Positions 7,860 through 8,129 of a stretch of 10,788 nt of DNA are shown piece by piece. How positions within the stretch are numbered: position 1 is the first letter of the stretch; the number at the start of each line of letters is the position of its first letter. A program made the translations under genes and the position numbers. The DNA comes from a virus (lineage: Monodnaviria; Loebvirae; Hofneiviricota; Faserviricetes; Tubulavirales; Inoviridae): the IMG/VR virus record IMGVR_UViG_2711768069_000001; one strand, given 5' to 3'. Under the pieces are notes generated by a model. It had not been told where the DNA came from. It saw nothing but the letters and a program-made list of their open reading frames with translations, and did not search any database.

Positions 7860-8129
7860 ATGAAAGATGAAAAGTATGAACGCCAAATTACATTACTCTG
7901 CCCGATTTGTGGAAACAGTCGATTGGAGCATGATGAGTTTACAAATGAAGTAACATGTATTTCTTGCGGAAAAACATCTAACTACGAACAGTTAACCGAA
8001 GATAATGGTGAACGCATTGATTTAGTTGCGAATGAAGTAGTGCGTGAAGTAAAAAACGATCTAGAGAAGCATTTTAATGACATGTTTAAAAAAGCGTTTA
8101 AAGGTAACAAAAATATAAGGATAAAATAA
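7860..8129 (+). CDS. Cargo gene B: Cys4 zinc-ribbon protein, 89 aa, unknown function
   Basis: CPICG...(17 aa)...CISCG motif followed by a charged, probably helical C-terminal region. GAGG Shine-Dalgarno 6 nt upstream. Stop overlaps the start of gene C (TAATG). Confidence 0.65.
   Translation: MKDEKYERQITLLCPICGNSRLEHDEFTNEVTCISCGKTSNYEQLTEDNGERIDLVANEVVREVKNDLEKHFNDMFKKAFKGNKNIRIK

Follow-up and report, generated by a model that had tools for sequence, protein, structure and literature searches.

A zinc-ribbon protein and a membrane-anchored partner are co-inherited in the cargo slot of a filamentous prophage

The DNA analysed here, referred to as the window, is the 10,788 nt IMG/VR virus record IMGVR_UViG_2711768069_000001, assigned to the Inoviridae. 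A complete set of filamentous-phage (inovirus) genes occupies the minus strand of positions 1-6817, in which a G2P-type replication protein is accompanied by an ssDNA-binding protein, a coat protein, pIII-like and pVI-like proteins, Zot (PF05707) and a secretin (PF00263). A divergent regulator is followed by four plus-strand genes, here named A to D, and the prophage adjoins hipA, with hipA/hipB occupying positions 9200-10788. The features of this region are as follows.

5618-6817, minus strand: G2P-type replication protein (PF05155, 6.6e-26)
6836-7369, plus strand: HTH_3 (RstR/CI-like) phage regulator, divergent from the replication gene and forming the upstream border of the cargo slot (Pfam HTH_3, 5.7e-7; phrog_3557, 3e-24)
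7378-7432, no strand assigned: conserved hairpin element bounding the variable cargo slot on its left, matching part of the major intergenic region of phage If1 at 93%
7464-7850, plus strand: gene A, a 128-aa multi-pass membrane protein (phrog_4174, 2e-35)
7849-7854, plus strand: Shine-Dalgarno sequence of gene B, GAGGTG, overlapping the TGA stop codon of gene A at 7848-7850 (read from the sequence)
7860-8129, plus strand: gene B, an 89-aa predicted Cys4 zinc-ribbon protein consisting of an ECs_2282-family domain, a helix and a conserved tail (ATG ORF; NF047912; dN/dS)
7887-7982, plus strand: predicted zinc-ribbon domain of B, residues 10-41, with three short strands at residues 22-25, 30-33 and 39-41 (AF2, pLDDT about 87-92)
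7983-8102, plus strand: predicted long charged alpha-helix of B, residues 42-81 (AF2; 7 K/R and 10 D/E)
8094-8126, plus strand: conserved C-terminal tail of B, AFKGNKNIRIK, the proposed docking motif for C (conservation; predicted disorder)
8117-8121, plus strand: Shine-Dalgarno sequence of gene C, AAGGA, within the tail codons of B (read from the sequence)
8127-8131, plus strand: TAATG stop/start overlap, in which the last A of the TAA stop codon of B (8127-8129) is shared with the ATG of C
8129-8608, plus strand: gene C, a predicted 159-aa single-pass inner-membrane protein and the conserved partner of B (TM helix 3-24, helix 30-58, cytoplasmic beta-sandwich 63-158)
8639-9028, plus strand: gene D, a 129-aa soluble protein, or 127 aa if the start codon is ATG 8645 (phrog_22661)
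9059-9093, plus strand: GC-rich hairpin with TTTT after it, on the downstream side of the cassette; likely a terminator or part of a folded attP (read from the sequence; not called by a simple scan)
9096-9123, minus strand: hybrid dif/attP site at the right prophage junction, with the XerC arm GGTGCGCATAA intact

Homology to most E. coli chromosomes begins at approximately window position 9106. As this start lies inside the dif-like site at 9096-9123, with its intact XerC arm, the window corresponds to a dif-integrated prophage. This site is a hybrid, and no exact or near-exact E. coli dif was present in the window when up to three mismatches were permitted. Another dif-like site, in the opposite orientation and with a 5-nt spacer, was recognised by eye on the plus strand at 9031-9057, such that the GC-rich hairpin (9059-9089) lies between the two; this inverted pair around a hairpin resembles the folded-hairpin attP of CTX-type phages. 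No Rfam family matched the window, and a promoter and terminator scan of 6700-9250 returned counts no higher than those in shuffled sequences. At the left end of the prophage, a gene for a HigA-like antitoxin (164-430, minus strand; phrog_1381, 4.8e-12) overlaps a small ORF (1-228, minus strand), and positions 1-430 are possibly a HigBA-type module carried by the same phage.

Genes A to D (7464-9028) lie between the HTH_3 regulator and the attP/dif junction, and this cassette was absent from all 5,426 complete E. coli genomes searched. Sibling prophages sharing the same backbone hold other genes in this slot: a 369-aa TM protein; an MtlR-like protein with a DUF2971 protein, the latter matching the PADLOC candidate PDC-S31 at 3.9e-48; or a pair of proteins of 76 and 364 aa. 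Hence the initial annotation of gene B as a small protein inside a cargo cassette was a fair description, as siblings with the same backbone carry different genes at the same place. The slot opens with the hairpin element, of approximately 55 nt; all sibling filamentous prophages of E. coli that were examined have it directly after the HTH gene and ahead of their variable cargo. The element has 97.6% identity over 41 nt to Alteromonas phage phiAFP1, with a fold z-score of only -1.8. It may mark a boundary at which cargo is exchanged by recombination, or be a packaging signal or an origin. The alternative 369-aa cargo (L001 9721-10830; L046 5587-6696) opens with a TM helix at the N-terminus, after which comes 'YTVMFTVTNKGKEKEKNVTITIP', a motif resembling the first strands of the C beta-sandwich, 'YRLKIFNKGKAAARSVRIAFP'. 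It may therefore represent a related class of membrane-anchored sandwich proteins in the same slot.

Gene B had been proposed as a coding gene from its sequence alone, and this was upheld: it is an ATG-initiated plus-strand ORF of 89 aa, with a Shine-Dalgarno sequence at 7849-7854, and its dN/dS was 0.12-0.26 in comparisons with three orthologues. Judged by these sequence comparisons, it is a real gene that has been kept as an expressed protein over evolutionary time. Two CxxC pairs, C14-P-I-C17 and C33-I-S-C36, are located near the N-terminus as originally described, although the spacer between them is 15 residues, rather than 17. These four cysteines are the sole invariant columns in a 95-sequence family alignment, in which spacers of 13 to 22 residues occur, and the residues corresponding to L45 and N49 are nearly invariant. 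An exhaustive HMMER search found the family to comprise 441 clusters (at 50% identity) with E <= 1e-3, and 221 with E <= 1e-10, nearly all of which were 80-95 aa in length. B belongs to NCBIfam NF047912, the ECs_2282 family of putative zinc-binding proteins, with a score of 43.3 bits against a cut-off of 37 (E 2.6e-11), and its residues 10-62 aligning with positions 1-59 of the 60 in the profile. A tblastn search of 50,697 GenBank phage records found no match to B.

Other assignments were considered and rejected. The TFIIB zinc ribbon (Pfam PF08271, Zn_Ribbon_TF) scored 26.5 bits against a gathering threshold of 29 (E 4.7e-6), and the Lar restriction-alleviation protein (PF14354) 17.4 bits against 28.6 (E 0.0055); S27e and the Cas12f zinc finger were also below threshold, and DksA/TraR did not match. 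One apparent relative of 1001 aa (P0065, with eight matches) is a repetitive Gram-positive surface protein that is merely rich in CxxC repeats. In the public assembly of E. coli 2-210-07_S3_C3 (P0004), B is annotated as a 68-aa protein starting from an internal TTG, equivalent to window positions 7923-8129; this call drops the first CxxC pair, thereby hiding the zinc ribbon.

The AF2 model of B (mean pLDDT 77) consists of a confident three-stranded ribbon (pLDDT about 90), a long helix and a disordered tail, in agreement with the charged helical extension expected from the initial annotation, for which structure prediction had been suggested as a check. The two CxxC knuckles, three-stranded sheet and four conserved ligands in the model are those of a generic Cys4 zinc ribbon with rubredoxin-like knuckles. 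Hence B is a predicted Cys4 zinc ribbon by every computational criterion. After the cysteines, the best-conserved stretch of B is the tail AFKGNKNIRIK, although residues 85-89 are predicted to be disordered (pLDDT < 50); a tail that is conserved yet disordered would typically fold on a partner.

The charge of B bears on what its ribbon might contact. The protein has a pI of 5.7, with net charges of -2 on the ribbon, -3 on the helix and +3 on the tail, such that only the 8-residue tail is basic. Among the 60 relatives passing a strict tail-motif filter, 73% had a pI below 7; most of the relatives that appear tail-less by this filter actually carry variants of the tail. Fold and sequence matches (ZifS, TFIIB, eL43, RPA12 and S27e) were to the generic ribbon only and not significant, with E > 0.1 in Foldseek (0.26 for the TFIIB ribbon), and a profile search of the PDB likewise returned only generic zinc fingers and ribbons. 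As B is acidic overall, direct nucleic-acid binding is not favoured. Hence the first of the two roles originally suggested for B fared poorly, given this acidity, a TFIIB Pfam match below threshold and only generic structural matches, whereas the second, as a sensor or regulatory subunit, is plausible.

Gene C was correctly described as membrane-anchored, as its product has a predicted TM helix at the N-terminus. The AF2 model has a pLDDT of 79.9 overall, rising to about 90 for the beta-sandwich of residues 63-158. All 26 homologues analysed have a predicted N-out/C-in topology, with no K/R before the TM helix, and between two and six after it. Hence the soluble part of C should be cytoplasmic, and accessible to B. 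C is accordingly modelled as a predicted cytoplasmic coiled coil and Ig-like beta-sandwich on an N-terminal TM anchor. The folds nearest to the sandwich include peptide- or strand-binding modules (the adaptin ear, MSP and pilus chaperones), with no enzyme fold among them. C matched no family in Pfam, NCBIfam or PADLOC, and nothing significant in a profile search of the PDB; nor was any effector or pore-forming domain recognised beyond the single TM helix. Its 63 N-terminal residues have a weak likeness to a holin PHROG (1e-3). The dN/dS of C was 0.055-0.09.

The association between these genes was studied through B homologues in 22 species-representative genomes, located with a 6-sequence alignment, and in a further seven IMG/VR viral contigs. 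The genomes include Trabulsiella, Pectobacterium, Yersinia, Lonsdalea, Agarivorans, Enterovibrio, Acinetobacter, Pseudomonas, Shewanella and several Bacteroidales. A C homologue was directly downstream of B at 21 of the 22 genomic loci, and at all six viral loci that were not cut, meaning the linkage spans Proteobacteria (Enterobacterales and Vibrionales among them) and Bacteroidota. The TAATG overlap originally noted was confirmed at 8127-8131, and most other B/C junctions are TAATG or ATGA overlaps, the remainder being gaps of at most 15 nt. The divergence of the two proteins co-varies (Mantel r 0.83; 0 of 5000 permutations), and no third neighbour recurs at B-C loci. The fixed partnership that had been proposed therefore stands, based on this linkage, the retention of overlaps across phyla, the co-divergence, and the orientation of the C domain towards the cytoplasm. 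Across the plasmid lineages, the only conserved stretch of DNA (88%) is window 8085-8133, containing the tail, ribosome-binding site and start codon. In Bacteroidales, the B tail is conserved without any Shine-Dalgarno-like sequence. Hence the constraint acts on the peptide, rather than only on the ribosome-binding site. These comparative data show B and C to be co-inherited, translationally coupled and under purifying selection, with the two genes travelling together among filamentous phages, conjugative plasmids and genomic islands.

A partnership extending to gene A, as had also been envisaged, was not borne out. This gene is found at a few enterobacterial and inovirus loci, and is missing from most B-C loci; conversely, it occurs without B-C, both ahead of other cargo in strain NU14, and alone in many genomes. 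Hence it is part of the phage backbone, rather than a partner of B-C. Gene A is over-extended in the ORF starting at GTG 7374: this ORF matches the PHROG only from residue 32 onwards, the start of homologues corresponds to ATG 7464, and the hairpin element accounts for the additional 90 nt. Gene D, the relatives of which are all annotated as hypothetical proteins, is present at loci L002-L007, L009, L011-L016, L044 and L045, and absent from L008 and L017-L038. Judged by this distribution, it is a lineage-specific accessory that is found only with enterobacterial B-C, rather than a conserved partner. At two distant loci (L027 5553-5975; L008 3561-3872), a small, unrelated, cysteine-rich (CxxC) protein is encoded just downstream of C, representing either a third zinc-binding component that has been recruited repeatedly, or a coincidence.

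The pair has varied carriers. At least three inovirus backbones carry B-C in the same slot, sometimes as tandem prophages, and inoviruses account for the window and five of the seven IMG/VR loci. One metagenome scaffold contains a second inovirus backbone with tandem A-B-C-D prophage copies (L011 and L015); such tandem copies are typical of dif-integrating filamentous phages. In Klebsiella islands (L002-L007) and conjugative plasmids, B-C-D is flanked by ISNCY transposases, the same 466-aa protein in each case. PLSDB contains 67 such plasmid records, 66 of which are conjugative, including the ColV plasmid NC_007675. On ColV-type plasmids, B-C-D is adjacent to a type I CBASS, whose cyclase matched at 1.8e-149 and whose 4TM effector at 1.7e-153, as well as to a UvrD/GajB-like helicase, in what looks like a plasmid defence island of ISNCY-bounded modules. 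In plasmid pMS1170_2 (L045 505-12294), B-C-D, the CBASS and the UvrD/GajB-like helicase pair are each separated by ISNCY copies. ParDE adjoins the module in Klebsiella, and neighbours elsewhere include SMODS with AGS_C, an OLD-family ATPase-nuclease, an SMC-like ATPase, HsdS with Fic, SNF2 with NOV_C, HNH, a CI-like repressor and a serine recombinase.

A diverged derivative of the cassette without B, containing A-like, C-like and D-like genes, was found in 15 E. coli genomes, including M9682-C1 (L044 1578-1690) and MS8345. Approximately 30 nt of the 3' end of B is left before the C start codon, with the rest replaced by the hairpin element; C itself is intact, and keeps all the residues that are invariant in its family. 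The derivative is 100% identical in at least three of the 15 genomes, which came from different hosts, and its closest B-containing relative is the plasmid version. The persistence of this derivative implies either that C can be kept without B, or that this copy was recently inactivated. Hence, by sequence comparison, the pairing is not absolutely obligate for the persistence of C. This argues against a simple model in which C is lethal and B its neutraliser, unless these genomes keep C silent.

The reading favoured here, with a probability of roughly 0.5, is that B and C constitute a self-contained, membrane-tethered, two-protein conflict or defence module, in which B would be the cytoplasmic zinc-ribbon subunit, docked on C via its tail and/or helix. 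It builds on the observed linkage, translational coupling, selection and mobility of the pair, and on the predicted folds and topology of the proteins, from which we infer that B docks on C and acts in sensing, and that the module has a defence phenotype. C would be anchored in the inner membrane by its one N-terminal helix, with the coiled coil and beta-sandwich in the cytoplasm. The tail and/or helix of B would dock on this sandwich or coiled coil, such that the two form a complex of fixed proportions tethered to the membrane. The zinc ribbon would then be an exposed recognition surface, the acidity of B making its target more likely to be protein than nucleic acid. A cue from infection might cause the complex to alter the oligomeric state of C at the membrane, such that infection is blocked or aborted. 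The carrier phage or plasmid would benefit, as its host would be protected from competing phages.

A two-gene membrane-linked defence or exclusion module is suggested by the inovirus slots, by the ColV plasmids on which the pair accompanies CBASS, by the OLD, restriction-modification and SMODS neighbours, and by the PDC-S31 match among the alternative cargo, although this is guilt by association from a modest number of loci. Counting against such a module are the failure of C to match PADLOC or Pfam or to show an effector or pore-forming domain, the weakness of the PADLOC matches of B, and the persistence of C in the B-less derivative. We tentatively entertain a broader version, in which B-C is an undescribed and widespread anti-phage or anti-MGE system of Proteobacteria and Bacteroidota, disseminated by inoviruses and ColV plasmids. 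It would combine an acidic zinc-ribbon sensor, a C-terminal docking peptide and a single-pass Ig-like membrane protein to achieve enzyme-free exclusion or abortive infection at the membrane, and the region from the hairpin element to dif would be a hotspot for defence genes.

The rival that survives best, although unlikely, is a toxin-antitoxin or addiction module. C would be a membrane toxin and B its antitoxin, with the tail folding on C and the ribbon perhaps autoregulating the operon, such that the pair stabilises the prophage or plasmid, and could double as an abortive infection system. The layout is that of a classic type II toxin-antitoxin system, with the small protein first, an overlap of 1-4 nt, and both proteins being small, and the combination of a folded N-terminal domain with a disordered, conserved C-terminus in B would suit an antitoxin. 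Carriage by prophages, conjugative plasmids and islands, the proximity of ParDE in Klebsiella and of HigA and HipBA in the window, and the weak resemblance of the N-terminus of C to a holin PHROG would also fit such a module. Small antitoxins that neutralise membrane-anchored toxins have been documented (PMC10440598). However, the B-less derivative with its intact C is hard to reconcile with a toxic C, unless it is unexpressed there; no known toxin or antitoxin domain was detected in either protein; and C differs from minimal membrane toxins in its large, well-folded cytoplasmic domain, on which purifying selection is strong.

An accessory function in the inovirus life cycle is unlikely. According to this explanation, the pair would act at the inner membrane, either excluding superinfection by related inoviruses, or controlling assembly or secretion, with B a regulatory subunit and C a membrane adaptor. 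Inovirus assembly and entry both occur at the inner membrane, and the predominance of inoviruses among the viral loci, the recurrence of the pair at the same position in at least three backbones, and its proximity to the phage regulator and the multi-pass membrane protein A are all as this explanation would predict, as is the presence of both a TM helix at the N-terminus and a C-like strand motif in the alternative 369-aa cargo. Yet most B-C loci are non-inoviral, being found in the chromosomes of Bacteroidales, Pseudomonas and Acinetobacter, in ISNCY-flanked plasmid and Klebsiella islands, and in viral contigs of 45-52 kb. Furthermore, sibling prophages with the same backbone entirely lack B-C, and hence the pair is dispensable for the phage.

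It is very unlikely that B is a stand-alone nucleic-acid-binding zinc ribbon, acting as a transcription regulator or DNA/RNA sensor, as the sub-threshold likenesses to TFIIB, S27e, RPA12 and Cas12f zinc fingers are confined to a generic 30-residue ribbon in an acidic protein, most of whose tail-filtered relatives are also acidic, and the basic C-terminal tail is conserved only in the subgroup paired with C, while ECs_2282 has neither the tail nor a C neighbour, making it better explained as a partner-docking motif.

Whichever explanation is correct, the annotation can be improved now, as B is half of a B-C pair, rather than a stand-alone zinc-binding protein. Were the pair to serve in defence or exclusion, the immune systems of bacteria would gain a compact, enzyme-free member totalling about 250 aa. 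Similarly, the dif-integrating filamentous prophages of E. coli would be carrying an exchangeable defence slot, comparable to the hotspots of P2 and P4, and the gene pair beside CBASS on APEC ColV virulence plasmids would gain a role. The linking of a zinc ribbon to a membrane Ig-like domain through a conserved peptide at its C-terminus would also provide a simple model for how small sensors can gate membrane effectors. Were it instead a toxin-antitoxin or addiction pair, it would help explain the stable upkeep of the prophages and plasmids that carry it.

Comparisons with known systems place B and C beside several of them. PADLOC does not contain the B-C pair, nor did the pair turn up in the literature searched, in which no paper mentioned ECs_2282 or PDC-M14. 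The nearest named family is NF047912, whose name RefSeq has already given to the plasmid and Klebsiella orthologues of B. ECs_2282 itself, from prophage Sp12 of E. coli O157:H7 Sakai, shares the N-terminal CxxC...CxxC domain of B, and this family is phage- and MGE-borne and uncharacterised. However, ECs_2282 is only 66 aa, terminates in an acidic helix with no AFKGNKNIRIK tail, and stands by itself in a lambdoid early region, where no C-like gene follows it. Hence, from these sequence features, B represents a distinct C-paired subgroup that is a member of the ECs_2282 family by its N-terminal domain only.

Among the PADLOC candidates, B-type ribbons have weak matches to PDC-M14A, PDC-S64 and HEC-08, which are themselves unvalidated. 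The similarity to PDC-M14A is weak and partial, with B and its relatives matching only positions 17-99 of the 152-aa profile at E values from 1.9e-8 (the plasmid copy) to 1.5e-4, including 2.9e-6 for the B of the window; the PDC-M14 partner subunit was matched neither by A, C or D of the window, nor by the C homologues of six other loci. PDC-S64 and HEC-08 are single-gene candidates, within which a zinc-ribbon segment matches B-type ribbons.

The resemblance to type II toxin-antitoxin systems with membrane toxins (PanAT with TM toxins, and RosmerTA; PMC10440598) extends to the overlapping bicistron, here two small genes with a stop/start overlap (TAATG, 8127-8131) that is kept in homologous loci, as well as to the membrane-localised second product, the small first product with a disordered C-terminus, carriage by MGEs, and a possible link to phage defence. 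It does not extend to the Panacea, Rosmer or other known toxin-antitoxin domains, none of which is present in B-C, and neither protein belongs to any such family in Pfam, NCBIfam or PADLOC. Nor does it extend to the tolerance of a B-less derivative with an intact C.

In the case of CBASS, the analogy is with the 4TM, 2TM-beta and Cap15-type effectors. Like C, as it is modelled, these are membrane-anchored, with a small, beta-rich cytoplasmic domain, and are encoded beside their activator in defence islands or MGEs. Unlike CBASS, B-C has no nucleotide cyclase, and whereas Cap15 has a beta-barrel, C would consist of one TM helix, a coiled coil and an Ig-like sandwich; no known effector was matched by C, either in sequence or, at a significant level, in fold. 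In some defence systems, a small transmembrane effector is gated by a cytoplasmic sensor. The mechanism proposed for B-C would resemble these systems by analogy, with the zinc ribbon of B as the putative sensor, and C as the candidate membrane effector.
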